Origin: an uncultured Bacteroidia bacterium
GTDB lineage: Bacteria > Bacteroidota > Bacteroidia > Bacteroidales > ML635J-15
Length of the DNA: 64,000 nucleotides
Reading direction: 5' to 3'
Assembly: GCA_902776565.1 (NCBI GenBank)
Contig: CACYQN010000013.1
Span: 71,357 to 135,356, forward strand
Shown piece after piece: positions 15,257 to 61,153 of the stretch. Position numbers and translations under genes: made by a program. How positions within the stretch are numbered: position 1 is the stretch's first letter; each line of letters starts with the position of its first letter. Under the pieces are notes generated by a model. It made no database searches. It saw nothing but the letters and a program-made list of their open reading frames with translations, and was not told the DNA's origin.

Positions 15257-15315
15257 GTTATCTTGTGCGTCATTTGCAATTAAACCAATATCTTTGTGCG
15301 GAAATCGGTATAGGT

Positions 15316-15924
15316 ATGAAGCAGATATTTTTGATTGATTACGAGAATGTAGGTTTGGCGGGTCTTACTGGCATATCCAAGTTGGGAAGCGATGACGAGC
15401 TGGTTATCTTTTATTCGGGCGACATTTCGGTAGTAAAGGAGCTTTTAAGCGCATACAAGGACAGGGGTGTCAAGATAAGTTATGAATGTCTTTCGTATGC
15501 TGGAAAAAACGCGCTCGATTTTATGGTTTCGGTGCGTGCGGGATACGAGTGCCGTGCCAGAAGCAAGAAGGAAATCCATATTGTGTCCAAGGACAACGGG
15601 TATAAGTCGGCTTTGGTTTATGCAACAAAGCTAAACAAAAATGTTGTGGTGGACTCGTATGTGAATATAGCCAATAAAAAGCTGGAACCAGCCAAGATTG
15701 ACTGGCAATCGGTGTTGCCGGAATCAAAAGAAGCCCGCAGGGAAAAATATCAGAAGCTACTTTCGGCTACAGATGTTCCGAAGAAATACCACGAGCAGTT
15801 GGTAAGTGCCTTAATGTCAAGCAGGACAATCGAAAGTTTCAAGACAAAAGTATGGAAGGCATTAGGCAAAAAGAATCTAGAGTATGTTGATGCTGTCTTG
15901 AAGTGCTATGGTTGTGTAGAATAG
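15316..15924 (+). CDS. NYN/PIN-like domain protein (putative RNase fold)
   Basis: N-terminus 'IFLIDYENVGL...VIFYSG...GKNALDFMV...IHIVSKDNGY' resembles LabA/NYN-type domains. I chose the ATG at 15316 over the track start. Confidence 0.5.
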   Translation: MKQIFLIDYENVGLAGLTGISKLGSDDELVIFYSGDISVVKELLSAYKDRGVKISYECLSYAGKNALDFMVSVRAGYECRARSKKEIHIVSKDNGYKSALVYATKLNKNVVVDSYVNIANKKLEPAKIDWQSVLPESKEARREKYQKLLSATDVPKKYHEQLVSALMSSRTIESFKTKVWKALGKKNLEYVDAVLKCYGCVE

Positions 15925-15959
15925 GTTCAAATGAGTTTGCGCATTACAAATGCTGATAT

Positions 15960-15998
15960 TCAAGCGTGTCGGATATATAAATCCGACACGACAAGTGG
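15960..15998. repeat. Left copy of a perfect 39-bp direct repeat containing a 9-bp-stem hairpin
   Basis: tcaagcgtgtcggatatataaatccgacacgacaagtgg is identical to 18251-18289. Hairpin gtgtcggat/atccgacac. Confidence 0.9.
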
Positions 15999-16057
15999 AC
16001 TATTATAATCTGCCGCTGGTTCGGTGCCCAGTCTGCACAACCCATTCGCCGCTTTCG

Positions 16058-16091
16058 AAAAAAAAACGCCGCCCGATGGAGCAGCGTTTTT
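16058..16091 (-). terminator. Intrinsic terminator of the GC-rich lipocalin-like gene
   Basis: On the minus strand: stem cgctgc/gcggcg (with one G-U pair) followed by a T9 run. Confidence 0.6.
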
Positions 16092-16112
16092 CTTATTGTC
16101 AATTCTAAAATG

Positions 16113-17171
16113 TCAGACGTGCGCCGCCGGGTCAGGCATACCCATATAGGCATACTCATAAATCATATCGCCGTTAGCCTCACGGGTTGTGCCGCCGGCA
16201 GGGGTGAATCGTACACCGCCCTTGGCGTAGTAGCGGCAATACTGCATACGCATTCCGATGGCATCGTAGCGCTTGCGCAGCTCCTTGCCGGCCATCTCGT
16301 ACATGTCCCAGAACTCGAGCTGGTCCTTCCACTCGACGTCGAACTCGGCACGCGAGCAGTCAGCGTTGGTGAAGACATAGTGGCTCTCCTTGGGAAACTC
16401 GCGGCCCTGATGCACCTCGGGTTCCAGACGCGTCTTGAGGTCGAAGTGGCCGTCGGTCATGAAGACCACTTTGCCGGTCTTGTTGTCCATCAGGCCGAAC
16501 ATAGGCAGCTGCTTGTAGCCGTACTGGCGGGCGGCCACGAAGTCGTAAATATAGATGGTATAGAGGTCGGTGTACATACGGCCCCACAGCCAGTGGTGGT
16601 AGAGGGCGAAGTGCATCGTGTTCATCCACTGGTGGTCGTGGTAGCCGAGTCCGCGGACCTCGTGCCACTCGCCATCGTAGAAGAGGCGGCCGCAGACCTG
16701 GTTCTTGGGCACGGCGAGGTCGGTGTGGTAGAACTCGTCGTTGTCACCAAAGGCCAGCAGCGAGGTGCCCTGGCGGAAGGGCTCGGTGAGGGCGTCGTAG
16801 TGCAGGTCGAGACCCACTCCGTGGACGGGCTCGAAGTGCAGATCGTAGTGCTTGAAGTCACCACGGCACCAGTGGGGACCCACCTTGGTGTCGCATTGTT
16901 CGCGGCTGAAGCTGCCCTCGGCGGCGGGGTAGACGATGTCGTCGCGGAACTCCTTGCCCGCGGGGCTCTTGATGTAGATGTTCACATGTGGCGAGTCGAC
17001 CGGCTTGGTCATGCCGTCCATCGACTTGGGACGGTAGCCGACCATGAACTTGGTGCCGTCGTCCATCGTGCCGTCGAAGTACCACACCTCGCTGCCCACC
17101 TCCTCGGTGCGCGTGCGGCGTCCGTCTTCCCAGGTCTCCACCTTTTCTGGGTTGATGCCAAGGCGTTCCAT
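16113..17171 (-). CDS. Lipocalin-like / AttH-CrtC-like (hydroxyneurosporene-synthase family) domain protein
   Basis: 'GLGYHDHQW' and 'WLWGRMY' motifs typical of the AttH/CrtC-like family. The fully open antisense ORF (16110..17186 +) is a consequence of high G+C. Confidence 0.65.
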   Translation of the reverse strand: MERLGINPEKVETWEDGRRTRTEEVGSEVWYFDGTMDDGTKFMVGYRPKSMDGMTKPVDSPHVNIYIKSPAGKEFRDDIVYPAAEGSFSREQCDTKVGPHWCRGDFKHYDLHFEPVHGVGLDLHYDALTEPFRQGTSLLAFGDNDEFYHTDLAVPKNQVCGRLFYDGEWHEVRGLGYHDHQWMNTMHFALYHHWLWGRMYTDLYTIYIYDFVAARQYGYKQLPMFGLMDNKTGKVVFMTDGHFDLKTRLEPEVHQGREFPKESHYVFTNADCSRAEFDVEWKDQLEFWDMYEMAGKELRKRYDAIGMRMQYCRYYAKGGVRFTPAGGTTREANGDMIYEYAYMGMPDPAAHV

Positions 17172-17346
17172 AACTTTTTAATTTAAAATGATTAATAAAA
17201 ACTTCTTATGCTTTATTTCACAATGCAAAAGTGCCACGAATAAATGACCTAAAATCTCGCTATCCAAGGCAAAAATGTCGAAATCCTACGATTTAGATAT
17301 AATAATATATATTTTTATTCGTTATTATAGCCAAAACGCAATAACT

Positions 17347-18180
17347 ATGGATATACGCAACCTTGATGCGCAGACGGCTCTCAACGAGCTGGTGCGCCAC
17401 GGATACCGCCACGCGGGTGACTACGGTATTATGATGAATGCACGTATGCAGGCGAACGGTTTTTTCCGCCAAGGGCAGCCCTATCGTGCCGTTGACGGCC
17501 GTGTCGTGGTGGTGCAGCAGGGCAAGATGACGCTGGAGATAGACTTGGTGGAATACCGTCTGCAGGAGGGCGACATTGCGGTGATGATGCCCGACGCCTT
17601 GGTGATGGCCACAGACATCGGTGCTGACAGCGTGGCCAGTGCTGTCATCTTCCGTCGGCTGCCATCGCAGGCCGCTCAGGCGGAAAGTTTCGTGCTGTCG
17701 GGCGACGACGTGGCCTACAGCCGTGTGAAGCAATACCTTGCTATGATTTTTGAGCAATTCAACCGCAACACCGTTTTCAGTGATATCATTGTCCATTTCT
17801 TCGATGCCTTGATTCTCGATATGCTGAGTCTTCACACGGAGGTCATTGCATCTCGTGACGATGGTTTTATGCACCGATTTATACACTTGCTCAGTCAGGA
17901 TGGTCGCGAGAAGCACCCCATCGACTTCTACGCCGAACGCCTCTGCGTCTCGCCCAACCATCTGAGCACCCTTGTGAGGAGTGAAAGCGGTATGACTGTT
18001 CTTCAATGGATAGATAGAGCCCTGGTGCGTGAAGCCAAGGTGCTATTGCATCACACACAGATGCCCATTGCCGAAGTGGCTGATACCCTTGGCTTTTCCA
18101 CACCGTCGTCCTTCATTCACTTCTTCAAACAGCAGACCGGTACCACACCGCTTCGATACCGAAAGCAATTATTGAGATAA
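17347..18180 (+). CDS. AraC-family transcriptional regulator
   Basis: C-terminal double HTH 'FYAERLCVSPNHLSTLVRSESGMTVLQWI...IAEVADTLGFSTPSSFIHFFKQQTGTTPLRYR'. I chose the ATG at 17347. Confidence 0.85.
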   Translation: MDIRNLDAQTALNELVRHGYRHAGDYGIMMNARMQANGFFRQGQPYRAVDGRVVVVQQGKMTLEIDLVEYRLQEGDIAVMMPDALVMATDIGADSVASAVIFRRLPSQAAQAESFVLSGDDVAYSRVKQYLAMIFEQFNRNTVFSDIIVHFFDALILDMLSLHTEVIASRDDGFMHRFIHLLSQDGREKHPIDFYAERLCVSPNHLSTLVRSESGMTVLQWIDRALVREAKVLLHHTQMPIAEVADTLGFSTPSSFIHFFKQQTGTTPLRYRKQLLR

Positions 18181-18250
18181 ATACCGTAGCTGCAGAGCCA
18201 GATGTCACAACTGCCAGTGGCACGCGTGGAGCGGCCTTGTGTGTGGGCAA

Positions 18251-18289
18251 TCAAGCGTGTCGGATATATAAATCCGACACGACAAGTGG
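18251..18289. repeat. Right copy of the perfect 39-bp direct repeat
   Basis: Identical to 15960-15998. Confidence 0.9.
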
Positions 18290-18345
18290 CATTCAAACCC
18301 ATAAACGTTGAACCATTTGAACTTTAAACGTTGAACCTTATATTT

Positions 18346-19305
18346 CTATTCGCTAATCCTGCATATTGCCCTCACTGGCAAACCGCAATCGCGAACCCAT
18401 GGGTACACGGTTGCGTATTCGTTTTCGAGATAAAAAGTGCAATTCATTGCACAAACAGGGTCTGTATAGCTTATGTCGGTTGCCAGAGTACTTGTCCAGT
18501 AACGACCGCAAACATAATCGGCTAGACCTTCATCACTATAATAGCGGACGGCAGGCATGAAGATTGAGTTTCCGTTTTCGGCCTTAAAGGTAAGTCCTAC
18601 CACATTGTTTATGGTATCTGTTGTTATTGTGCAATTTTCAATCAGTTCCATATAGTCATCTTCCGATGGTGTTTTCCATTGTCCGCCCCAGTTTACTGCT
18701 GCGGCGTCGTCTTCAGCTAAAAGTGATGCCAGTTCATCGGTGAAGCCTTCGTATCCGTAATCGCTGTATGGGCAGTACTTAGTAAGCTTTCGAAGAGTAT
18801 CTTCACCTTCTACCACAATGCGTATATACGGGTAATTTTCGGTGGTATAAGTCTGTTTTTGCGCTGTTTCGGCCCATGCGTAATAGTTTCCGGCAGCTTC
18901 GGGAACATCGGCGCCAATGTTGCAGGTTGCCCATAAATTTCCGCTCGGCAATCCAAGGTCGATGTATTCGTGACCGTTGTGCATGGTTACAGGCCGTTCT
19001 TCGTTCCACTGTGCGTAGAGTGTCATGTCGGCAACCACCTTTATTTTCTGCTGGTCGGTGTAGGAAGTGCCAGAGCCGTCGCGCATTGTGTTCCATCCTG
19101 CAAACGAAAAGCCTTCGCGTGTGAACTTGTTGGCACTAAGTGCTTTTTCGTAGTCTTCGGTAAACAATTGCGTATCCATGTTTCCTTCGCCGCCGTTGGC
19201 ATCGAAAGTTACCGTATAGGTTGTTACATTTGTATCGCAACCGCTGAATGCTATCATTCCTGCTACAGAAACGATGGCGAATAATAGAAATAATGATTTT
19301 TTCAT
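18346..19305 (-). CDS. Lipoprotein with a Listeria-Bacteroides (InlB B-type) repeat and a DUF1566/FISUMP-like C-terminal domain
   Basis: Lipobox 'AFSGC'. 'YTVTFDANGGEG...GFSFAGWNT...DGSGTSY' repeat. 'LWATCNIGA...YYAW...WKTPSEDDYMELI...YWTST'. Confidence 0.7.
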   Translation of the reverse strand: MKKSLFLLFAIVSVAGMIAFSGCDTNVTTYTVTFDANGGEGNMDTQLFTEDYEKALSANKFTREGFSFAGWNTMRDGSGTSYTDQQKIKVVADMTLYAQWNEERPVTMHNGHEYIDLGLPSGNLWATCNIGADVPEAAGNYYAWAETAQKQTYTTENYPYIRIVVEGEDTLRKLTKYCPYSDYGYEGFTDELASLLAEDDAAAVNWGGQWKTPSEDDYMELIENCTITTDTINNVVGLTFKAENGNSIFMPAVRYYSDEGLADYVCGRYWTSTLATDISYTDPVCAMNCTFYLENEYATVYPWVRDCGLPVRAICRISE

Positions 19306-19535
19306 CGTACTTTATTTTTTGAGCGACAAAGATATATATTTTATTGATTAAATTGTGTTTTTTGGGGATAGTTTTTGGAGGAAAGAGTATGAGGAAACAA
19401 ATCAGACAAGACAAAGAGAAGGAAAGTATTAGAAGTTTTTTCTGTCCATTTTATTTTTTGCTTTTTTATTCAAAAAAACAACTTAGTGTATTGGTTGTTA
19501 ATGGTTTAAGTGTGTTTATTTTCTGTTTTTATTTT

Positions 19536-19721
19536 CTATTTATTTTTTTTTGCCAGTTGATATGTCATATTTCTGTTAGCACCTTCTCGTTCTAATATTC
19601 CTTCAGTCGCCATTGAATAAACCATTTTACGGATGTCTTTTATATCAGCATCAGGGAGCCGTATGGCAATATCCGATATTTTACTTTTGGGGTGCAATCG
19701 CAAATCTTCTTCAAGTAGCAT
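19536..19721 (-). CDS. Small winged-helix DNA-binding protein (61 aa), last gene of the RES operon
   Basis: 'ISDIAIRLPDADIKDIRKMVYSMATEGILEREG' is a wHTH-like pattern. Lies 17 nt downstream of the RES gene on the same strand. Confidence 0.45.
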   Translation of the reverse strand: MLLEEDLRLHPKSKISDIAIRLPDADIKDIRKMVYSMATEGILEREGANRNMTYQLAKKNK

Positions 19722-19738
19722 TTTTAGACGATGTGGCT

Positions 19739-20725
19739 CTACAGTTTTTTTAGATGTATTTGATTAATGGTGATTTTACTCACTTCATACGGATAAACAC
19801 GTACACATTTCGCTTTATTAGGATAAAATAGCACCAGATTTTTTCCTGCATCTCTGACAGAACTCTTAAACTTTATGCCATCTGCTCCACGACATTTGAA
19901 AAATTCACAAATATATTGCGTTGGTACATATTCTAACTCTGAATCAAAGCTACGTAGAGGTTTTGACAAGTCGTTGCTGATGGCATCAAACAGCACACGA
20001 CGTTTCACTTTCTGTTTGAAAACAATCTCGCCCTCATCATAAAATACATTAAAAAGATTGACTTTCTCTGTAAAGTCCACAATCTTAAGATTGTCTTCTT
20101 GGATAAGAAATTCACCGATATCAACCCTATCAAGATAATATGGTCTGACCTCATAGAATGGTGTCTTGTTGTCGTAGCATAGGTATAGATATCTTATTCC
20201 ATTCGGATTTGCCCTACCTGGTGTTGCAAGTTCCGGTGTTTTTGGGGCCCCCATTTCATCTATACTGAAAGTGGGTTCTTCTTTGTGATGAACACGAGCA
20301 CGGAAAAACTTTTCATTTTTGAACAGTATCAATGAGTCACTATCAATATTAAATTCATTGAAAATGTCAACAATCGAATCCATTTGACAAAAGAAGCGGG
20401 TATTTGTTTTCATTTCTGTCTTAACATCATCCCATGCTTGCAAATAATCCCGATATTCTGCAATATATCTAACTGGGTCATTGGGCTGAAAAAGACTGCC
20501 CAGCATGTCAAGAACTATTGACAACGATTTTTCGTCTACAAAAATAGGCCAGTCTTTTATCAAAGCGTAGGAAAGAGGCTTGCCGTCTTGTGAGATTTCA
20601 TATAACGACAATAAAGAATTGAGAAAATCCTTAATGGTTTGATTATCATCCTCAACACCATCAGACAAAAAACCAACGATTTCGGAATCGGAAAAGTACT
20701 CACTCTTCATGTCCAACATATTCAA
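19739..20725 (-). CDS. RES-domain protein with an N-terminal extension of about 150 aa (putative NAD+-targeting toxin/effector)
   Basis: 'PGRANPNGIRYLYLCYDNKTPFYEVRP' (R and E of RES) and 'DGIKFKSSVRDAGKNLVLF' (S). Confidence 0.7.
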   Translation of the reverse strand: MNMLDMKSEYFSDSEIVGFLSDGVEDDNQTIKDFLNSLLSLYEISQDGKPLSYALIKDWPIFVDEKSLSIVLDMLGSLFQPNDPVRYIAEYRDYLQAWDDVKTEMKTNTRFFCQMDSIVDIFNEFNIDSDSLILFKNEKFFRARVHHKEEPTFSIDEMGAPKTPELATPGRANPNGIRYLYLCYDNKTPFYEVRPYYLDRVDIGEFLIQEDNLKIVDFTEKVNLFNVFYDEGEIVFKQKVKRRVLFDAISNDLSKPLRSFDSELEYVPTQYICEFFKCRGADGIKFKSSVRDAGKNLVLFYPNKAKCVRVYPYEVSKITINQIHLKKL

Positions 20726-21672
20726 TCCTCCTTTTCATGAAGAATTCTGTTCATTAGTTCAATGTGGTTCTTAATACTATATTTTTTGATGGCTCCTAGA
20801 CCAGGATAGCCAGTAGCCGTAAGTTGCTGTATAGCCTGTGTGGTCGGTTTGCTATTAAAAAATGGCATTATCTTATTCTTGGCTTCTTCAAACTCGTTTC
20901 TAATATTGTTAGAACCATTCTTTGTGTCTGAAAGGAAATGATGAATATAGACCTCATCTTCTTCTTTCTGATATGTGATATGTATAGCGACCACTTGTGG
21001 AAGCACCCCTCCTTCTCTATAATTCTTAGCCAAAGAGGTGAAATCAGAGAAACCATACATGTTATAATCAGTTGCGTAATAACTAAATGTATCTGTAAAG
21101 AATTCGTCTATATTGTTACGGTATGCATTGTTGGATGGCTGTTCAACAAATCGATCTTCTATAGTAATCAATTTTTTTTCCATTGCGGCCAATTTGCGTC
21201 TCATAGTAGGACTCTGACTAAGATTCTGTACAGTAACATACGTTACTTTTGGAGATCTAATTAATCCATTGACTTTTTTATCATTCAAATCCACTCCTGA
21301 GAAAAAAATCAGCATAACATTACTTAAGTCATAGTTCGCAATTGTTTGTTCAATAGTAACCACGTTAGCATTGCCATTCACTTCAAATGCTGGAGCCCAA
21401 TTTGATAATGTGATTCTATTTTCGACGAGAAATGTTTCAATATCAAAAGTTTTACGCTGGTAATCACCCATGCATGTATTTAGAACAATTGCAAACGGCA
21501 TATTTGCTTTCCCCATAGCCTCAATACATGACATCATTGGCTTAATATCATTTTTAACTGGCTCAATAATAGGCATAATATGGTCGCCATAGTCTCTATT
21601 ATAGGACTCATCAATAAACTCCTTAATGGCTTTGAATTCAAATAATTTTCCTCTAAGAAATGGCAAGTACAT
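20722..21672 (-). CDS. sce7725-family / P4 beta-protein-like (Pfam Beta_protein-like) protein
   Basis: N-terminus 'MYLPFLRGKLFEFKAIKEF...MPIIEPV' matches my memory of the family signature. 4-nt ATGA overlap with the RES gene. Confidence 0.55.
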   Translation of the reverse strand: MYLPFLRGKLFEFKAIKEFIDESYNRDYGDHIMPIIEPVKNDIKPMMSCIEAMGKANMPFAIVLNTCMGDYQRKTFDIETFLVENRITLSNWAPAFEVNGNANVVTIEQTIANYDLSNVMLIFFSGVDLNDKKVNGLIRSPKVTYVTVQNLSQSPTMRRKLAAMEKKLITIEDRFVEQPSNNAYRNNIDEFFTDTFSYYATDYNMYGFSDFTSLAKNYREGGVLPQVVAIHITYQKEEDEVYIHHFLSDTKNGSNNIRNEFEEAKNKIMPFFNSKPTTQAIQQLTATGYPGLGAIKKYSIKNHIELMNRILHEKED

Positions 21673-21674
21673 AT

Positions 21675-22529
21675 TCAGATAATTTTATTGTTTAAACTTT
21701 TTGTTATCAAATCCAATTGTTTGTAGGAAAGGTGCATGCTTAGACATATCTGGTAAAGTTCATGAGGTGCATGTACTAAAAGGTTAAAACTGCTCTTCCT
21801 TGTTTCTATCGTTTCCAAAAATGCATCGTGGAGCAATTCCCCTTCTATGCTTTTTAAGATATCCTTGCATTCCTCATAGTGTTTATACTTGCTTTCAGAT
21901 AATCTAGCACCTGCATAGTGCTCTGCGATGTATTCATATTCTTCGGCCCTAAGACAAGTCATCAGTACATCGACATCAATACGTTCATTTTTTTTAGCTG
22001 GTCGGACTTCCTCCATTGAAATCTTTTCTCTCGGTCCTTTACAGAAAGCTATGATACCCATATCTTCATCATAATTCTTCCAGTTGTTAATTTCGCTTTG
22101 TTCTATAACAAGATAACATTTGTCAAAAACGCGTCGATAGTCGTTCATTTGTCCTTCTAATCTATGGGGGGTATCGTAGCTAGTCTTTATTTCGTATGCA
22201 CGGCTTTCGCCATTAAAGAATGCCAAGTCTGCAATTGAGTTGCCTACTCGGAATTCATTTATAAGAAGAGACCGTTTGCTTGCGTATTGTTTGCTTAGTT
22301 CTGATATTATCTCATTTTTGAAAACATACTCGCAACGGTAATTCATTTTCAGTGAAGAATAGAACCGATGCAAGCAGTCCATATAAGTCTCATTGTCGTT
22401 ACGTCTATTTGCACGGCAAAGCAATGTTAACATTTCTGAGTCTCCCCAACGCAAAATATCAGTATACACACTCCGTCCAAAGGCTTGTGCGAACTGTCTA
22501 GATTTATATGCCTGAATCATTGTTGCCAT
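21675..22529 (-). CDS. sce7726-family protein with a PD-(D/E)xK nuclease-fold motif
   Basis: 'YRCEYVFKNEI' and 'NEFRVGNSIADLAFFNGESRAYEIKTSYD' (E...D...ExK). 2-nt gap to the next gene. Confidence 0.55.
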   Translation of the reverse strand: MATMIQAYKSRQFAQAFGRSVYTDILRWGDSEMLTLLCRANRRNDNETYMDCLHRFYSSLKMNYRCEYVFKNEIISELSKQYASKRSLLINEFRVGNSIADLAFFNGESRAYEIKTSYDTPHRLEGQMNDYRRVFDKCYLVIEQSEINNWKNYDEDMGIIAFCKGPREKISMEEVRPAKKNERIDVDVLMTCLRAEEYEYIAEHYAGARLSESKYKHYEECKDILKSIEGELLHDAFLETIETRKSSFNLLVHAPHELYQICLSMHLSYKQLDLITKSLNNKII

Positions 22530-22619
22530 AAAACAATGGGATCTCTAATTCTAACTATTTGCGTAATTCTTCAGAACCAGCCTAGATCCGATAAGCATCG
22601 GTACATATGAATCACGATG

Positions 22620-22627
22620 CAAAATTA
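22620..22627 (-). promoter_or_regulatory. -7 box (TAatTTTG on the minus strand) for the sce7726-sce7725-RES-wHTH operon
   Basis: The plus strand reads caaaatta; lies about 90 nt upstream of the 22529 start. Confidence 0.4.
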
Positions 22628-22954
22628 CTTTTTTTTTGATATTTATATGTTTTATGATGAAGAGTTTTATATTGCTTTTTGTCGATTCTTAATTCTGTTT
22701 AACTTCTATTCTTTCAATGGTAGGAGGCGCTACTTGACATATACAGGATAGAATTGTTCCTGTTAGTATTAAGAATTTGCTATAGATTGATTTCTTTTTC
22801 CCAATTTTCCCACAACTTGTGGAAGATTTTTAATCTCTTGTAAATTAATACTTCTGCTTCCCCGGTATCACCCCTCTCACCCCGCCTTTCGGATTCGCAA
22901 CATCGCCTTTATAGCGTGGAATCAGAGTAAATCTGACACGCAAAGGTATATCTG

Positions 22955-23821
22955 TTATTTTAACTTATCTGGATTTCGGGAGAAATAATTAGTAACTAGT
23001 TTCGATAGATATTCTTCTTTGTAGAATTTGAAATCAAATTTTTTTACAGATTGGTTGTATTGATGAATATCTATTATAAAGTCAGATTTATTTTTCTCAT
23101 TTTCATAGTTTAGTCCCAAGAAACGAATATTTCTTTTATGCGATTCCAATTTGGTGTCAGCAAAGTCATAAAAAGTTTTGTCTTTGAACATTTTGTTGTA
23201 AAAAATAGCAAAAAAACCTCGGTTTTCTTCCAATATTTTGAATGATGGTTGATTGATGTGTTCAATATCTACAATGTCATCCTTTTTTTGTTTTTTGTTT
23301 GATTGTATAAGAGAATACCCAGAGAAACGACCTTTCATTCCTTGTGACCAATCTTTATCAATTGGCAATTCTGGATTGAAAAAAGTCCCAGACAAATCAT
23401 TTTTCAAATAGCTAAACTGGTCTGGAATCAAAAAATCGAAATCTTCTATTTCTGTATGCTTGATTTTTGTCTTTTTATTCATAAAGTTGATTCCTTCATG
23501 GGTAATATTCAATGTGTCATTATCAATTTCTCGAAGAAAATTATTTTTTATCAGATAGTTGAATTGAACATTAACAAAAGAATCATCGTTAATACCTAGT
23601 ACTTTGAAAATTTCGGAATATTTTGTTTTCCCATTATTGACTAGGTCCAAGATTATATAACTAAAACGGTCAACCTCGATATCTTTCTCAACATAAAGAT
23701 TCTGTTTGCAATACCAAAATGGTAAATCAATCTCAAAAAGTTTTTTTAGACGATAACCTTCTGTTTTATGGTCGTCTTTATGCACTAGCCATGTTTTCTG
23801 TTTCCAATCTTCTTTATTCAT
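22955..23821 (-). CDS. Helicase-coupled protein with a predicted N-terminal winged helix (288 aa), otherwise unknown
   Basis: 8-nt overlap with the upstream helicase gene (gATGAATAAag). 'FSYIILDLVNNGKTKYSEIFKVLGI...YLIKNNFLRE' is MarR-like wHTH. Confidence 0.6.
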   Translation of the reverse strand: MNKEDWKQKTWLVHKDDHKTEGYRLKKLFEIDLPFWYCKQNLYVEKDIEVDRFSYIILDLVNNGKTKYSEIFKVLGINDDSFVNVQFNYLIKNNFLREIDNDTLNITHEGINFMNKKTKIKHTEIEDFDFLIPDQFSYLKNDLSGTFFNPELPIDKDWSQGMKGRFSGYSLIQSNKKQKKDDIVDIEHINQPSFKILEENRGFFAIFYNKMFKDKTFYDFADTKLESHKRNIRFLGLNYENEKNKSDFIIDIHQYNQSVKKFDFKFYKEEYLSKLVTNYFSRNPDKLK

Positions 23822-26800
23822 CGAACACTTCTTTCAAATTATCAAAAATTAAACCTTCATTCTTAAGTTTTTCGGTTATTAGTCTTAACTTGAATTCAGG
23901 GAAATCATCTGTTGGGTTAAATCCTGCCCGTTTTAGAATATATTCACTATCGCCCACAATAAACAGCATACGTTTAGCACGCGAAAATGCGACATTTATT
24001 CTTCGATAGTCTGATAAAAAACCGATATTGTCTCGACCTAGACTACTTCTTACTATATCATAGATAATAATATCACGTTCAGCACCTTGGAATTGGTCTA
24101 CAGTATTGATTTCTATCAATTGTCGCTTATCATTGCTTATGAAATTGTTGTATTCAGAAGTATTTATTTGTTGTTTAAGCAATTCTACTTGCCCTCGATA
24201 GCCAGCTATTACACCTATAGAAAAAGGTGATTCTTTTTGCGGGTTATTAGAATATGAAATGTTGAGTTTGCCTAACAATTCTTTTATCGCATTTACATTG
24301 CATTGATTTTGTCGTTTTTCCTTATTGCTGTTATCTTGATGGTTCTCTATGTTTGATGTGCTTAGAAAAACAATTGATGTTTGTTTTTTTAGTTTCAAGC
24401 CGTGTTCTTTGCTTTTGTCATATCCCTCAATATCTGGATTTTTCAATTTCCCATCATAGAAAAATTCAGAAATTAGATTGCCAATTTGTTTAGGCATACG
24501 ATATTGAATATCAAGCATTTTTACATACCGTCTATTATAATCTGACTGTTCAAATGCTTTCTTTATTTTTTCAAATAGACTTTCTCCAAATGTCTTATTA
24601 ATATCAAGCCCTTCGTCTTCCAATTGGTCTTTAACATCATCCTCACGTGTTATGACTGGTGGTAATTGCTTGTCGTCTCCTATCATTATAATGTTGTGTC
24701 CCATACTGAGAGGCACAAGGGATTCTGCTGGTGTTGCTTTGCTGCTTTCGTCCATTATTACATAGTCGAATTTGAAATTGATTTTGCTGTACTTGCTACT
24801 TGCAATATGAATGCAAGTAGATCCAACAACATTTGTTTTCATCAGCATGGCAGTTAGAAAATCAATCTCTTGACAACCATTGTTCAACATTGATTTTTTT
24901 CTTTTGCCATCAGTGTCAGCATCAACCAGAGAATTGCCAATAAATGAAATCCAATCTTTTTGAATTCGCTTCAATTTTAAATACTCTTCACCAAATTGTT
25001 TCTCAAATATTTTTTCTGCGGTTTTGAAGTCGTTTGCTTTCTCAAAAAGTCTTTTAATGTAATTGGGACTATAATTCAAATGTTTGGTAAACTCTGGAAA
25101 ATTATTCGATTCTCTTGCTTCTTCAAACTTTTTGAAAAGATTTCCTATTCCTTTGGTATTTTCTTGTCCTAAATAATTTTCTTCAAAATATTTATTTGAC
25201 AATTTTTCAGTTTCTGTAATCCATCTTTTTAGTTTTTCTTCATAACAATGCGATTTCATTTTTTCTGAAACAGTATCATTTTCAAGAGCATTCTCGCTCG
25301 CTAACCTTATGAATTGAACATCATTGATATCAATTAGTTTCTCAAGGACATTATCAACGGCCAAATTGGATTGTGATGTCAGTAGTATTTTTATATCTTT
25401 TTGCCTCTTTACTAGTTGTCTTATAATTTCTACAATAACAGTTGTTTTACCAGCTCCTGGAGGTCCTTGAATCAAATATATTGGTTTATAACTGATTGAT
25501 TCCAATGCAGATTCTAATTGTGATGGGTCTAATTTCTCATTGTATAGTTGAGTTTCAAAATCATCGTAATTTAAGTTGTGTACTCGACAATCTATTTTTT
25601 CTTCTGGTGTCGCAACAATGTCGCACAATTCTTGATTTACAACCTCTCTTTTCAAGAATTTTTGGCACGATTCAATTTGTTTTTTGAATTGACTAGTTTC
25701 TTGCCTAATATCTTCTGACAGTTCTCCTTGTTCCGGAAGTTCTTCGATGCTACATTTAGGATTTGATATAGAGATGGTTTTGTCAGCAGATTTCCATTCA
25801 AAAATTTCTCCTAATAAAGTTTCATCAACAAAGAGTTTTTTATGTTCGTTTTTGAGTGTTTTTATTTTGTTCCAACTGATTTTTACACTGTCATTCAATT
25901 TGAAGGTTATTTTTTGTCCATCTTTAGATAATTCTCTTTTTGTGTATTTTACATTAAATGCGTTATTTTCAATATAATCTTTTTCGATTTCAGGTAATTT
26001 TTGCCAATCAGAAAGTTTGTCTTTGTTCTGCTGGGTAAGTATTGCCAAGTTGTTTAATCCTTGGTATTTTTCTTCAAAGAAATCGGTACAATCATAGTTA
26101 TTATAACTATCTTGCATTGTGAATAAGAATTCTGCCAAAAACGAATCTTCTTTTGAATTTATTTTTTCGTTTTTCTCGTTTCTACATCCGGATAAAGGGA
26201 TAAAAAGGCATCCTTTGTTATCGACAAAATAACGGCCGCTGTAATCATCTGTAGTAAATTGTCCTGTTACTTGATTGGCTTTGGAGCGTTCGTGGTCAAC
26301 AATCATCCATGTGTTTTTATTCATCGAACTGATAATCGGCTGAAAATCACCGTAATGTTCCGGTTGTGTTGCAACTTTGATTGTGCGATAATCTTTCCTT
26401 TTTATGGAAGGCAATTGCTTGAGCAAATCTATCAGTTCACTATATTTAGAGAAGCGTGCTATGCGATTTTCCGCCAAACAATTCTCCGTAATTAAGTCGG
26501 TGATTTTTTTGTAACGGGCTGAATAATTGCTATTTATAAATCCTTTGAATGTTTTAACTAATGAATATATATCATCTTGAAGTCTAGGACTTGACTGACT
26601 TCTGTTTGATAAGTATTTTTTTGTTTCGGGAGATAAATAAATTTCTTCCAAGATATTATCTGTAGCGAAAATGTCGAATAGTTTTGCGAAAAGCAATCTT
26701 GCATCTCCTTTTTCATCTACCCGTATATACTTTGGCGATATTATGAACTTTTGAGAATTATCACTCGTCTTGAACCAATTGAGACCTTCTGCAATATTAA

Positions 26801-27143
26801 TAATGTAGGGAATGTCGATATTGCATTTGTTTATATCATAATTCTCAATTCCAAAATGTTCATATACAATGTAGTAAAACTTATATTGTTCATCAAATCC
26901 TGTTTCTATAGTTTTTACGAATCCTGATATGTCTTTATTGGTTAACGACTTTACTTCATTTTCAATAATGCGTTTTAACATTCTTTCGTTAGTTTCTTTG
27001 CTTCTGATAATTAGGATATCAAATAGCTTACCACTATTGTCTTCACATTTTTTGTAGAAATAAAGATTGTCGCTCAATTGTTTTGGCAGTGAGGTTATGA
27101 TGTAGTTGCCAATTGATTCAATATTGTCCACAAAACTTGTCAT
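23814..27143 (-). CDS. Fusion of a degenerate protein-kinase-like (pseudokinase) N-terminal domain and an Upf1/DNA2-like SF1B helicase (AAA_11/AAA_12)
   Basis: Helicase motifs 'IQGPPGAGKTT', 'YVIMDESSKA', 'MIGDDKQLPPV', 'LDIQYRMP', 'TVDQFQGAERDIII', 'RRINVAFSRAKRML'. The N-terminus is collinear with a kinase fold ('FDILIIRSK', 'YYIVYEHFG', 'FIISPKYIRVDEKGDARLLFAKLFD', 'YLSPE', 'DIYSL') but lacks HRD and DFG. Confidence 0.85.
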   Translation of the reverse strand: MTSFVDNIESIGNYIITSLPKQLSDNLYFYKKCEDNSGKLFDILIIRSKETNERMLKRIIENEVKSLTNKDISGFVKTIETGFDEQYKFYYIVYEHFGIENYDINKCNIDIPYIINIAEGLNWFKTSDNSQKFIISPKYIRVDEKGDARLLFAKLFDIFATDNILEEIYLSPETKKYLSNRSQSSPRLQDDIYSLVKTFKGFINSNYSARYKKITDLITENCLAENRIARFSKYSELIDLLKQLPSIKRKDYRTIKVATQPEHYGDFQPIISSMNKNTWMIVDHERSKANQVTGQFTTDDYSGRYFVDNKGCLFIPLSGCRNEKNEKINSKEDSFLAEFLFTMQDSYNNYDCTDFFEEKYQGLNNLAILTQQNKDKLSDWQKLPEIEKDYIENNAFNVKYTKRELSKDGQKITFKLNDSVKISWNKIKTLKNEHKKLFVDETLLGEIFEWKSADKTISISNPKCSIEELPEQGELSEDIRQETSQFKKQIESCQKFLKREVVNQELCDIVATPEEKIDCRVHNLNYDDFETQLYNEKLDPSQLESALESISYKPIYLIQGPPGAGKTTVIVEIIRQLVKRQKDIKILLTSQSNLAVDNVLEKLIDINDVQFIRLASENALENDTVSEKMKSHCYEEKLKRWITETEKLSNKYFEENYLGQENTKGIGNLFKKFEEARESNNFPEFTKHLNYSPNYIKRLFEKANDFKTAEKIFEKQFGEEYLKLKRIQKDWISFIGNSLVDADTDGKRKKSMLNNGCQEIDFLTAMLMKTNVVGSTCIHIASSKYSKINFKFDYVIMDESSKATPAESLVPLSMGHNIIMIGDDKQLPPVITREDDVKDQLEDEGLDINKTFGESLFEKIKKAFEQSDYNRRYVKMLDIQYRMPKQIGNLISEFFYDGKLKNPDIEGYDKSKEHGLKLKKQTSIVFLSTSNIENHQDNSNKEKRQNQCNVNAIKELLGKLNISYSNNPQKESPFSIGVIAGYRGQVELLKQQINTSEYNNFISNDKRQLIEINTVDQFQGAERDIIIYDIVRSSLGRDNIGFLSDYRRINVAFSRAKRMLFIVGDSEYILKRAGFNPTDDFPEFKLRLITEKLKNEGLIFDNLKEVFDE

Positions 27144-27182
27144 ACCTATACGAATTTTATTGATAACATTTTAGATAGTGAC

Positions 27183-27226
27183 AAAAAAAAGGTGTAAGCA
27201 TTTTTCTTTGTTTACACCTTTTTCCT
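27183..27226 (-). terminator. Intrinsic (bidirectional-looking) terminator of dnaK
   Basis: Stem aaggtgtaa (27189-27197) / ttacacctt (27212-27220), flanked by an A8 run and a T-run. Confidence 0.7.
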
Positions 27227-27257
27227 TTTTTATAAGTAGAAATTTATTTTCAACAAC

Positions 27258-29660: not shown

Positions 29661-29723
29661 TAATTATCAATTATCCAATTGTTCATTGTCAATTGTTCAT
29701 TGTCAATTGTCCATTGTCCATTG
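29661..29723. repeat. Heptamer tandem array (about 9 units of tcaattg/tccattg/ttcattg)
   Basis: 7-bp periodicity read directly. Preceded by the conserved module ttcgtttcggctacgctcaacgggcgg. Confidence 0.85.
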
Positions 29724-29870: not shown

Positions 29871-31007
29871 ATGAAAGTAAATAATCCGTTCATAATAACG
29901 AGCAAATATGTCTCGAAGGAATATTTTTGCGATAGGGAGAAGGAATCTGCGGAATTGGTTGGGAATATACGGAATTGGCGTAACACGGTCTTGGTTTCAC
30001 AGCGAAGAATGGGCAAGTCTGGGCTTATTGGACATGTATTCTCGACACCAGAAATATCAAAGGAATACGAAACATTTTTCATTGACATATACGATACTAC
30101 CAGCCTTGATGACTTTGTGTTGCTTTTGGGAAAGGAGATATGCGAAAGGCTTCAGTCGCGTGGAGAAAAACTGGTGGAAAAGTTTCTGATGACAGTGTCC
30201 TCCGTGGTAGCGTCGTTCAGTGCCGACCCGATAAGCGGTATGCCGTCGATAGATTTGAAGCCAAGTGCAACAAGTTCGGCAGGAAAATCATTGGAACAGA
30301 TATTCAAATTCTTGGAAAGCAGTTCAAGGCCGTGCGTGGTCGCAATTGACGAGTTCCAACAGATAGCCGACTACCGTGATGGCAAAAAAATTATTGCAAC
30401 TTTGCGCAAGCTTGTGCAAAACTGCCAGAATACCTGCTTCATATTTGCAGGAAGCAACCGAAGAATGATGGGACAGCTTTTCAATACGCCTTCAGAACCA
30501 TTCTTTATGAGTTGTACGCCACTGTATTTGGATGCTATTGCGATTGATAAATACACGGATTTTGTAAGCGGGCACTTCAAGAACAATGGGAAAAAAATCG
30601 AGAAAAAATGTATCGAAACCGTTTACACTCTGTTTGATGGACATACTTGGTATATGCAATATGTTTTCAATAGGATTTTTGAAATTACAGATGCTGGGGA
30701 AACAGCCAATTTGCAGTCGATAGAAACAGCAATAATCAACATTTTTGATATTTTCGAGCATGTTTTCCAGGAAATGTTGCTAAGGGTTTCCGAAAAGCAA
30801 AAGGCTCTGTTGATTGCCGTCGCCAAAGAAAACAAAGTGAAGAATATTACTGGTTCGCAATTTATTTCGACCTACAATCTGAAGACGGCAAGTGCAATCC
30901 AAGGTGCGCTTAGACCGCTGATTGAAAATGAAACTATTACGAAAGAAGTTGATTGTTATCGTATTACAAATAGGTTTTTCTCGCTTTGGATAGCAAAAAG
31001 GTATTGA
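29871..31007 (+). CDS. AAA+ ATPase of the archaeal-ATPase/DUF234-type family (ATP-binding protein)
   Basis: 'FCDREKESAEL...VLVSQRRMGKSGLI' Walker A; 'VVAIDEFQQI' Walker B. A multicopy family in Bacteroidales. Confidence 0.75.
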   Translation: MKVNNPFIITSKYVSKEYFCDREKESAELVGNIRNWRNTVLVSQRRMGKSGLIGHVFSTPEISKEYETFFIDIYDTTSLDDFVLLLGKEICERLQSRGEKLVEKFLMTVSSVVASFSADPISGMPSIDLKPSATSSAGKSLEQIFKFLESSSRPCVVAIDEFQQIADYRDGKKIIATLRKLVQNCQNTCFIFAGSNRRMMGQLFNTPSEPFFMSCTPLYLDAIAIDKYTDFVSGHFKNNGKKIEKKCIETVYTLFDGHTWYMQYVFNRIFEITDAGETANLQSIETAIINIFDIFEHVFQEMLLRVSEKQKALLIAVAKENKVKNITGSQFISTYNLKTASAIQGALRPLIENETITKEVDCYRITNRFFSLWIAKRY

Positions 31008-57913: not shown

Positions 57914-58414
57914 ATGGATATAAAAAAAGTAATATCGGACTATATGAATTACAGCTTTTCCTATACTGAGTGGTATGAAAAAGCATTATACGAGGATGAT
58001 ACTCTTTCGATAATAAACATTGGTACTGATTATGCTAAAGCAGAAATGTACGAACATGCTGTTACATGTTGGAAATATATCGCAGATAAGGGGTGCGGAA
58101 ATCCTGATGTTTATAGCAATCTAGGAGTGTCGTATTATTACGGTAATGGTGTGGAGCGAGATTACAAAAAAGCCGTATCATACTACCAACGTGCGGCCGC
58201 AATGAATCATCCATTCGGGATGTACAATCTTGCTGTTGCATGTGAATATGGTAATGGTACACCAAAGGATAAGGGCAAAGCAGTTGAGTTTTATCGTAAG
58301 GCTGCAGAAAAAGGTGTAAACCAAGCTATTGATGCTTTAATTAGATTAGGATTGTATGATGAAATAAATGGCTTGGCTTTTTATGGAAGAAATATGAATG
58401 ATGATTCGTTTTAA
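57914..58414 (+). CDS. Sel1-like repeat (SLR/TPR-family) protein
   Basis: Three units of the 'G.GV..D...A..YY..AA..G...' type, for example 'YYYGNGVERDYKKAVSYYQRAAAMNH' and 'CEYGNGTPKDKGKAVEFYRKAAEKG'. Confidence 0.8.
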   Translation: MDIKKVISDYMNYSFSYTEWYEKALYEDDTLSIINIGTDYAKAEMYEHAVTCWKYIADKGCGNPDVYSNLGVSYYYGNGVERDYKKAVSYYQRAAAMNHPFGMYNLAVACEYGNGTPKDKGKAVEFYRKAAEKGVNQAIDALIRLGLYDEINGLAFYGRNMNDDSF

Positions 58415-58425
58415 AGACTATTATT

Positions 58426-59466
58426 ATGGCTGGATATTATTTTCACTTACCTGCAATAACGCAGTTGACAATTCCGCAACAAGCGGCATTGAATGAACCT
58501 CGACCAATAGCATTATCGGGTGGTCCAGGAACAGGCAAAAGTGTTGTTTCTTTATGGAGACACATAAATAATTACGAAAACAGAAAAAGAAGTTTATTGC
58601 TAACTTATACAACAACCCTAAAAGAATACCTAAAAAGATGTTGTGAAACCCAAAATACATCTGCTGCAACAAATATAGGGACATCGTATCGTAATCGTCC
58701 TCATCAAAATTGGAGTGAGATAATTGTTGATGAAGCTCAAGATTTAGAAAATGATTACTATGGAGACATAAAACAATATGGTAATGTGTCTTACGGTGCA
58801 GATGATTCACAGATTTTATATCCAAGCCATTGTTCAAAACAAAATGAGTTGAGAACTTTATTTCCATCAAATGTTCTATGTGTATTGAATAAAAATTTTA
58901 GAAGCACACAGAGGATTATGAAATTTGCGAAACAAGCTTTTCCGAATGCTGTTATTCCCCAGCAAACCATTAATGATTTAGCAAGCAATATAGGAGAATG
59001 GCCTGTTATGCTTATTTCCAATAACAAATCCAAACAAAATGAAGCATTGGTTCAGATAGTTAATTCTTTTAGAGCAGATGACCAAAATATTGCTATTCTA
59101 TTGCCTTTTAAAGAAGAGAATAGTCTTTCTGTATCAAACAAAAACAATGTTAGATATTTCGAAGATATAATAAAAACAATAGGTGTTGAGTATAGTGTAT
59201 ATTATGAAGACCAAGTTCGTTTTCCAAATGGTTGTGGAAAAATTAGCAATATACATCTCACAACATTTAAATCGGCCAAAGGATTAGAATTTGACACGGT
59301 TATAATTCCTAACTTTGATTTATATCCAAAAGTATGTGAAGATAGCTATGTAAACAAATGGCAAGATTTTTATGTTGCTTGCACACGAGCAAGAAGCAAT
59401 CTTTATCTTATAAGTAATTATGATTCTCAAAATTTAGATTCTGTAACAGACAAACAAAATTTATAA
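58426..59466 (+). CDS. Minimal UvrD/Rep-like SF1 ATPase (346 aa; core 1A/2A motifs only)
   Basis: 'LSGGPGTGKS' (Walker A), 'IIVDEAQDL', 'NFRSTQRI', 'TFKSAKGLEFDTVIIPNF', 'FYVACTRARSNLYLI'. Confidence 0.8.
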   Translation: MAGYYFHLPAITQLTIPQQAALNEPRPIALSGGPGTGKSVVSLWRHINNYENRKRSLLLTYTTTLKEYLKRCCETQNTSAATNIGTSYRNRPHQNWSEIIVDEAQDLENDYYGDIKQYGNVSYGADDSQILYPSHCSKQNELRTLFPSNVLCVLNKNFRSTQRIMKFAKQAFPNAVIPQQTINDLASNIGEWPVMLISNNKSKQNEALVQIVNSFRADDQNIAILLPFKEENSLSVSNKNNVRYFEDIIKTIGVEYSVYYEDQVRFPNGCGKISNIHLTTFKSAKGLEFDTVIIPNFDLYPKVCEDSYVNKWQDFYVACTRARSNLYLISNYDSQNLDSVTDKQNL

Positions 59467-59468
59467 TT

Positions 59469-61142: not shown

Positions 61143-61153
61143 AAGATTTTAAA

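Follow-up and report, generated by a model that had tools for sequence, protein, structure and literature searches.

We examined a two-gene locus on the minus strand of contig CACYQN010000013.1 (assembly GCA_902776565.1) from an uncultured Bacteroidia bacterium. It lies within a stretch of 64,000 nucleotides (nt), contig positions 71,357 to 135,356, which we refer to here as the window and whose own numbering is used throughout. The locus encodes a large protein of 1109 amino acids (aa), with a kinase-like head in front of a Upf1-like helicase, and a partner of 288 aa. Judged from the sequences of both proteins and their relatives, the pair is probably (about 0.8) a derivative of type I Mokosh, composed of a kinase-dead MkoA and an MkoB that is devoid of the PLD domain. 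Most likely, it works as a helicase-driven defence module with the MkoB-type protein as its adaptor. The two genes and their parts, as delimited from open reading frame (ORF) calls, profile matches and AlphaFold2 (AF2) models, are the following.

23814..27143 (-): MkoA-like gene, 1109 aa, with predicted pseudokinase head, middle region and Upf1-like superfamily 1B (SF1B) helicase (ORF call, PADLOC, Pfam)
26409..27116 (-): predicted pseudokinase domain, aa ~10-245 (Foldseek, hhalign, residue alignment)
25524..26408 (-): middle region, aa 246-540, which follows the pseudokinase and precedes RecA1 (AF2 model)
23928..25523 (-): SF1B helicase core, aa 541-1072, with the Walker A motif GPPGAGKT at nt 25443-25466 (motifs, PADLOC, PDB relatives)
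23814..23821 (-): stop of the helicase gene and start of the partner gene, overlapping by 8 nt, ATGAATAA (sequence reading)
22955..23821 (-): partner gene, 288 aa, short MkoB-like protein without a PLD domain (ORF call)
23450..23803 (-): MkoB-type N-terminal domain, partner aa 7-124, including a winged helix at aa ~51-123 (hhalign, local profile, Pfam, AF2)
22958..23449 (-): partner C-terminal domain, aa 125-288, possibly the MkoB middle region and not PLD (hhalign, AF2)

The large protein as a predicted MkoA homologue

The PADLOC MkoA model PDLC03920 matched the 1109-aa protein with an E-value of 1e-134, aligning residues 12-1071 to profile positions 8-1081 of 1112, and by this similarity we assign the protein as an MkoA homologue. 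The score comes mainly from the helicase, as residues 541-1109 alone gave 415.5 of the 449 bits, and nothing meaningful was found when the N-terminal halves of both proteins were scanned separately against PADLOC and Pfam. The PADLOC MkoC model matched the protein too, in the RecA2 region only (E 2.6e-30).

All the motifs of the SF1B Upf1-type set that had been quoted in the original prediction were located, namely GPPGAGKT at aa 560, DESS at 798, GDDKQLPP at 822, QYRM at 880, QFQGAERD at 1017 and RRINVAFSRAK at 1047. Pfam recognised AAA_11 (5.7e-41) and AAA_12 (2.7e-48), and the solved structures nearest to the helicase core were Sen1, Upf1, IGHMBP2 and Nam7 (E about 2e-35 to 2e-31). By its sequence, the helicase part is thus classed as Upf1-like SF1B, with ATPase motifs that appear intact. 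The AF2 model of the middle region consists of an alpha/beta unit, a long helix and a beta-rich unit, of which the last two seem to resemble the stalk and the 1B region of Upf1-type helicases.

The N-terminal head as a predicted degenerate kinase

Word-indexed homologue searches with the N-terminal 540 aa, either as a single sequence or as a profile, recovered 5-6 proteins only, so the AF2 model of residues 1-540 was built on a 7-sequence alignment. The mean predicted local distance difference test score (pLDDT) of this model was 76.7, with values of mostly 84-93 over residues 10-245. When the model was compared with PDB structures, Foldseek returned 1905 matches at E<=1e-3, and the 50 matches listed were protein kinases without exception, with PknB of S. 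aureus (4eqm, E 6.7e-9, TMt 0.60) at the top. The profile of the subfamily N-terminus gave sub-threshold matches only against PDB sequences; 43 of these 44 were kinases (MEK1 and CaMKK2 among them), and the alignments were collinear, starting at the catalytic loop, passing YLSPE (APE-like) and ending at QDDIYSL (subdomain IX). By profile-profile comparison, hhalign aligned 15 subfamily N-termini with eight canonical MkoA kinase domains at a probability of 98.4% (E 4.5e-15, residues 12-298 on 11-296). The kinase-like N-terminal fold that had been proposed from a few strings, all of which are present (ILIIRSK at aa 43, YIVYEHFG at 91, FIISPKY at 133, LFA at 151, YLSPE at 169 and DIYSL at 191), is therefore well supported.

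The same alignment agrees with the earlier view that the head is catalytically dead. The position of the HRD aspartate is occupied by Ile134 in the window protein and by I, L, V, M or F in all 15 relatives, while Phe152, at the position of the DFG aspartate, is invariant in the 15. The catalytic-loop asparagine position is Tyr139 in the window protein, the Gly-rich loop is absent from all 15 relatives aligned to the canonical domains, and the beta3 lysine is present in 7/15 relatives, with Arg47 at this place in the window protein. Residues with a structural role in kinases are kept (alphaC Glu63, Asp191 and Arg230). No PADLOC kinase model matched the window protein, and the two canonical MkoA proteins that were scanned matched PD-T4-6, mad6 and PglW or Stk2 (best E 7e-50 for Nostoc and 4e-40 for C. 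botulinum). As the residues needed for phosphotransfer are gone from a kinase fold, we refer to the head as a predicted pseudokinase, i.e. a degenerate MkoA kinase domain, which probably works as a scaffold or a regulatory surface.

A serine/threonine kinase domain joined to a COG1112 helicase is the published composition of MkoA in type I Mokosh (Millman et al., bioRxiv 10.1101/2022.05.11.491447). The kinase head on a Upf1-like helicase is hence the known MkoA architecture and no departure from Mokosh, and with the N-terminus of the partner homologous to that of MkoB (below), the original claim of an architecture different from Mokosh was overstated.

The partner as a probable shortened MkoB

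The partner family comprised 27 homologues in a word-indexed search and, when 1.84 billion cluster representatives were searched exhaustively, 46 clusters at 50% identity, mostly of ~270-380 aa. Alignment of 49 family members with nine plasmid MkoBs by hhalign gave a probability of 97.6% (E 2.9e-12), placing residues 7-124 on MkoB 8-119. Individually, 31 of 38 family members matched the PADLOC MkoB model PDLC03922 (best E 8.7e-11), and their matches started at profile position 4-7 and stayed collinear up to position 97-209 of 610. With a hidden Markov model (HMM) built locally from the nine MkoBs, all the family members that were tested gave a match. The window protein was one of them (26.4 bits over residues 18-124), and the match of a few members reached as far as HMM position ~250, which corresponds to about residue 278 of the partner.

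The N-terminal hairpin and the winged helix of the partner, a domain common to all MkoB proteins, are located at the same position as in MkoB. A winged helix at this end had been predicted, and it receives moderate support from the only Pfam match of the partner (HTH_45, E 0.0015, below the cut-off), from the AF2 model (18 homologues), whose pLDDT is 80-88 over residues ~50-115, and from Foldseek matches of this model to MarR, SlyA, RovA, PadR and AspA (E 0.013-0.08). Foldseek could confirm the winged helix alone, because it is just there that the model is confident.

The absence of a PLD or nuclease domain, also stated earlier, held for both proteins, in which none was recognisable by Pfam or PADLOC. 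PLD, MkoB and DrmC had no Pfam or PADLOC match to the window partner, and the HxK motif was not found in it. The PLD region of MkoB occupies about residues 300-470. The best alignment of the partner C-terminal domain, which is not significant, falls at residues 99-279, in the middle region of MkoB. Taken together, the alignments describe the partner as the predicted N-terminal domain of MkoB, possibly followed by its middle domain, with the PLD nuclease domain missing.

Linkage, distribution and selection

The stop codon of the helicase gene and the start codon of the partner gene overlap by 8 nt, just as the original prediction had said. This overlap is identical among the called genes of loci L001, L002, L030, L031 and L032, and in the other loci the ORFs overlap or abut. 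Homologues of the partner were collected in 20 loci (L001-L020), 14 from representative genomes and the rest from metagenome contigs. The co-occurrence check proposed for the two genes confirmed a conserved pair, as an MkoA-like gene was directly upstream of the partner in 19 of the 20 loci, and also in L030-L032; the upstream sequence of L003 was too short to judge linkage. Wherever the contig covered the 5′ part of the MkoA-like gene, the same N-terminal region was found. Clustering of the flanking ORFs showed that the MkoA-like and partner families alone recur in all 14 non-redundant loci, and the flanks of the pair differ in every lineage.

The loci from representative genomes belong to Paludibacteraceae, Chitinophagales, Flavobacteriaceae, Balneolaceae, Dokdonia ponticola, Cryomorphaceae, Roseivirga and three Fibrimonadaceae, so that the pair spans two phyla, Bacteroidota and Fibrobacterota. 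Its distribution is patchy, with 14 loci in a set of one genome per species that covers 185,579 species. No relatives of the partner were found in viral contigs.

The ratio of nonsynonymous to synonymous substitution rates (dN/dS), calculated by the Nei-Gojobori method between the window and L031, was 0.23 for the pseudokinase, 0.23 for the middle region, 0.11 for the helicase, 0.09 for the N-terminal domain of the partner and 0.24 for its C-terminal domain. Values of 0.09-0.24 indicate purifying selection on all parts, which means that the degenerate domains are maintained rather than decaying.

Canonical plasmid pairs and variation within the family

A tblastn search of plasmids with the large protein gave 482 records, in which the best genes were mostly annotated as serine/threonine-protein kinase and the match began at about aa 380 of the large protein. 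In each of the nine plasmid loci that were opened, the kinase-annotated gene was followed by a gene of 434-581 aa, with a 4-8 nt overlap, abutting ends or a gap of no more than 28 nt between them. Two of the pairs were scanned with PADLOC; their MkoA proteins scored 711 bits (Nostoc) and 636 bits (C. botulinum) and their partners matched the MkoB models, and these two are canonical type I Mokosh. The kinases of the eight canonical MkoAs aligned keep HRD or HND and DFG or DYG.

The PLD catalytic motif HxKxxxxD was present in four of the nine plasmid MkoBs (Nostoc, Oscillatoria, Arthrobacter and Aliarcobacter). It is missing from the other five, from Clostridium botulinum, Aminobacter, Agrobacterium, Bacillus thuringiensis and Citrobacter (L022, L025, L026, L027 and L029), in which the C-terminal region still aligns. 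MkoB without the catalytic motif is thus common, and a nuclease-independent branch of the family is already represented in sequenced plasmids. In Aminobacter (L025) and Agrobacterium (L027), a PP2C phosphatase gene comes right after MkoB as a third gene, and the loci with a motif-less MkoB and PP2C suggest a branch of type I Mokosh that centres on the kinase and whose nuclease is dead.

Another third gene was detected right after the partner in the three Fibrimonadaceae loci (L009:6960-7850, L011:8995-9822 and L015:9247-10149), and it encodes a zinc ribbon and a weakly PIN-like domain. The 534-aa protein P0041 is a fusion of the partner with this PIN-like protein, 73% identical to the L011 copy. 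A zinc ribbon was also identified at the end of the partner homologues P0024, P0025 and P0034 and of the partners in L009 and L015. In this small sample, the N-terminal module of MkoB looks like a constant adaptor to which variable outputs are attached.

Composition and neighbourhood of the locus

The G+C content is 32.0% in the MkoA-like gene and 28.6% in the partner gene, compared to 42.8% in the window and 51.2% in the adjacent dnaK; for positions 25021-25080, where 28% had been counted by hand, we computed 28.3%. The low-GC stretch extends from about 19.7 to 27.2 kb and contains, in addition to the pair, three more genes on the minus strand. Neither a tRNA gene nor flanking direct repeats were found that would define the boundaries of the island. 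The neighbouring features are the following.

27144..27257 (-): intergenic stretch that separates dnaK from the helicase gene, with a terminator-like hairpin of dnaK and a putative promoter of the pair (terminator scan)
21675-22529 (-): sce7726-family gene (NCBIfam E 5.5e-45; PADLOC 'cll' E 1.7e-19; Pfam Phage_P4_cII)
20722-21672 (-): sce7725-family gene (E 2.1e-66)
19739-20725 (-): gene for a RES-domain protein (Pfam RES E 1e-12)

The terminator-like hairpin was identified at 27186-27223 by the terminator scan and is visible in the sequence too. The promoter scan reported 25 promoter-like sites where 21 were expected, a signal that is not separable from background.

The sce7726, sce7725 and RES genes (19739-22529), which abut or overlap, share the low-GC island with the pair and come directly downstream of it, and they look like a separate candidate toxin or defence module. 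By comparison with L031 and L032, the interval from dnaK to a conserved PIN7-domain gene (15265-15924), approximately 15265-27257 in the window, is a variable hotspot. In the window it holds the pair, then the sce7726/sce7725/RES genes, a Flg_new lipoprotein, an AraC regulator and a 358-aa ORF. The window was matched by a 356-kb metagenome scaffold (ERZ28612973 scaffold_9). In a sister strain, whose dnaK and PIN7 proteins are 98.5% identical to those of the window, the pair is at the same place next to dnaK, with 92% identity for the MkoA-like protein and 88% for the partner. Downstream of it are bona fide AbiEi and AbiEii (PADLOC E 1e-95 and 1e-120), which replace sce7726/sce7725/RES, and nothing else occupies that hotspot. 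Because the sister strain has AbiEi/AbiEii there instead, the pair is an autonomous unit in a variable defence hotspot, and the three downstream genes are a separate cassette.

On the other side of dnaK, a 14-nt unit, CAATTGTTCATTGT, is repeated three times in tandem at 29676-29717, within the AT-rich intergenic region between dnaK and a divergent ATPase_2-family gene (29871-31007), and might serve as an array of regulatory operators. On the plus strand, 57914-62629 is a second island of low G+C content (29-33%). It encodes a 166-aa ORF, a 346-aa fragment of a UvrD/GajB-like helicase (PADLOC GajB E 3e-15; RTasNERD-Hel E 1.2e-14) and two proteins of 557 and 491 aa that had no PADLOC match, and it may be another defence locus.

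Proposed mode of action

The two proteins would form a complex through the MkoB-type N-terminal domain, in which the pseudokinase could act as scaffold or offer an allosteric surface. Phage nucleic acid (RNA, or else a replication intermediate) may then be engaged by the winged helix together with the helicase, and ATP-driven translocation or unwinding by the helicase would be the sole enzymatic step encoded by the pair. Perhaps the output is nuclease-independent, with the helicase disrupting or remodelling the bound nucleic-acid or protein complex. Alternatively, an effector encoded elsewhere might be recruited in trans; this would fit the sister clade, as the PIN-like protein is there encoded by a third gene or fused to the partner. 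Any specific output of this kind is put forward tentatively.

It is more speculative still that the pair represents a minimised Mokosh that confers immunity with neither kinase nor nuclease, built on a core of helicase and winged-helix adaptor, onto which PLD, a PIN-like protein, or PP2C together with a live kinase would be added as interchangeable outputs, or alternatively that the C-terminal domain of the partner is a new effector fold. The subfamily amounts to a natural deletion experiment, in which nothing has been kept but the ATPase of the helicase, a scaffold made of a dead kinase and the N-terminal winged-helix domain of MkoB, and purifying selection maintains it in two phyla. If the pair defends, the conserved core of type I Mokosh would consist of the helicase and the MkoB adaptor, with the nuclease as an exchangeable output (PLD in the canonical systems, PIN-like in Fibrimonadaceae and none here). 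As the PADLOC models see the helicase and not the partner, such loci would probably stay as orphan MkoA matches.

In the literature searched, we found no description of the mechanism of type I Mokosh, no paper that links a pseudokinase to Mokosh and, in the searches on Mokosh, none on an MkoB without PLD. Type I Mokosh resisted purification in one recent survey.

Weighing of alternative explanations

Several observations weigh against a Mokosh derivative. The PADLOC check that had been suggested succeeded for the large protein but not for the 288-aa partner, which gave no match to MkoB even at E<=10; the assignment of the partner to MkoB is therefore built on profile-profile and family-level evidence. 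Its C-terminal 164 residues were not significantly similar to MkoB by hhalign (probability 0.7%, P 0.08), and its AF2 model has a pLDDT of 52.8 overall, falling below 50 in the C-terminal domain. Broken MkoA-like copies occur in three loci, in at least five ORFs in L018:4625-7950 and in two ORFs each in L002:4503-7833 and L019:4684-8004, and these are either pseudogenes or errors of metagenome assembly. The PIN-like protein of the Fibrimonadaceae had no match among PDB sequences or in PADLOC, and since its support is a Pfam PIN_4 match below threshold (E 6.7e-4; 20.4 bits, where the cut-off is 21.9), the PIN assignment is kept as a weak one. Finally, defence by those Mokosh systems that have been tested so far needed the PLD active site (Millman et al., bioRxiv 10.1101/2022.05.11.491447), so the way in which a nuclease-free Mokosh would protect a cell has no precedent.

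A different reading sets the two genes apart from Mokosh as an architecture of sensor and effector, in which sensing falls to the helicase and the C-terminal domain of the 288-aa protein is a new effector. This would agree with the lack of a detectable nuclease domain, with a C-terminal domain that matches nothing known and has a dN/dS of 0.24, and with the invariance of H188, D219 and R230 in closer homologues. However, these three residues fall below 90% over 38 diverse members, and the C-terminal positions that are conserved in at least 90% of them (Y169, F217, Y218, I232 and F234, plus E269) are mostly hydrophobic, unlike an active site; the scarcity of conserved polar or charged residues argues weakly against an enzyme. 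Moreover, the homology of both proteins to MkoA and MkoB makes the architecture not independent of Mokosh, and the addition of a separate PIN-like module in sister lineages suggests that the partner alone is an adaptor. We regard a new effector as doubtful. A decaying, non-functional remnant of type I Mokosh that has lost its kinase and nuclease would account for the loss of both accessory catalytic functions and for the fragmented relatives in L018, L002 and L019. It is very unlikely, given the low dN/dS in all domains, the pseudokinase and the partner C-terminal domain included, the fixation of the same degenerate features in 15/15 relatives from Bacteroidota and Fibrobacterota (e.g. Phe at DFG), the conserved gene overlap, and the 46 clusters of the partner family.

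A housekeeping or regulatory role was also considered, in which a winged helix-turn-helix transcription factor and an RNA/DNA helicase would serve, for example, RNA quality control or a stress response. Eukaryotic Upf1-like helicases act in RNA surveillance, the winged helix is like those of the MarR, PadR and SlyA regulators, and dnaK adjoins the pair. Such a role is unlikely, however, for genes which are found in only 14 loci over 185,579 species genomes, with different flanks per lineage and a G+C content that is low relative to the host, which are 88-92% identical in the sister strain where the flanking dnaK and PIN7 are at 98.5%, and next to which defence or toxin modules are exchanged for one another (AbiE or RES/sce7725/sce7726). 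The pair could also be imagined as part of a five-gene system with sce7726, sce7725 and RES, all on one strand and in one low-GC island. RES domains are NAD+-directed toxins, and a RES toxin (Pfam E 1e-12) would then be the missing effector. On the other hand, a gap of 425 bp separates the partner from sce7726, the three genes were found in 0/14 of the other non-redundant loci, and the sister strain has AbiEi/AbiEii in their stead. The single five-gene system was rejected on this locus comparison and on the sister strain, and we hold it to be highly improbable. A type I Mokosh derivative with a dead kinase and no PLD domain thus stays the preferred reading.

Comparison with known systems

The SF1B motif set of the window helicase is common to the eukaryotic Upf1, Sen1 and IGHMBP2. 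The CH domain has no counterpart in the window protein, and the kinase-fold head and the MkoB-like partner are absent from the eukaryotic helicases. Nhi, in which a nuclease is fused to a Upf1-like helicase, differs in that the window proteins gave no PADLOC Nhi match and no nuclease domain was found in either of them. Mokosh type II (MkoC), a single protein with an N-terminal helicase and a C-terminal PLD, shares the Upf1-like helicase core; the window locus, in contrast, has two genes, a kinase-fold head and no PLD domain.

The plasmid pairs with a degenerate PLD come nearer, as their MkoBs are likewise without the catalytic HxKxxxxD. Nevertheless, these MkoBs keep the full-length C-terminal PLD-like region which the window partner does not have, four of their MkoAs that were aligned keep HRD and DFG/DYG whereas the kinase of the window appears dead, and two of the loci add the PP2C phosphatase gene.

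The closest system is Mokosh type I. The gene order is the same, with mkoA first, on the same strand and with overlapping genes. The layout of MkoA, with a kinase fold, a middle region and a Upf1-like SF1B helicase, is also the same, its model being matched over the whole length, and the N-terminal hairpin and winged helix of MkoB have their equivalents in the partner. On the other hand, the window kinase is without the Gly-rich loop, the HRD aspartate, the catalytic-loop asparagine and the DFG aspartate; kinase competence is not a stated requirement of the published Mokosh description, and in the alignment all eight canonical members show the Gly-rich loop, the VAIK lysine and the HRD and DFG aspartates, or variants close to them. 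The partner, at 288 aa against 434-581 aa in canonical MkoB, is shorter by about 150-290 aa, is devoid of the PLD domain and HxK, and is not recognised by the PADLOC MkoB models, and the dependence on the PLD site cannot apply to a pair that has no PLD domain. In summary, the locus has the helicase, the kinase fold, the MkoB N-terminal homology and the gene order of Mokosh type I, and not its kinase catalysis or PLD nuclease. As the PLD nuclease is the feature that defines published Mokosh, we do not file the pair as a plain member. Its difference from Mokosh type I is one of loss, with the kinase catalytic residues gone and the PLD domain absent, and the loss of kinase catalysis together with the nuclease, in a subfamily that is under selection and widely dispersed, is real and moderately interesting.

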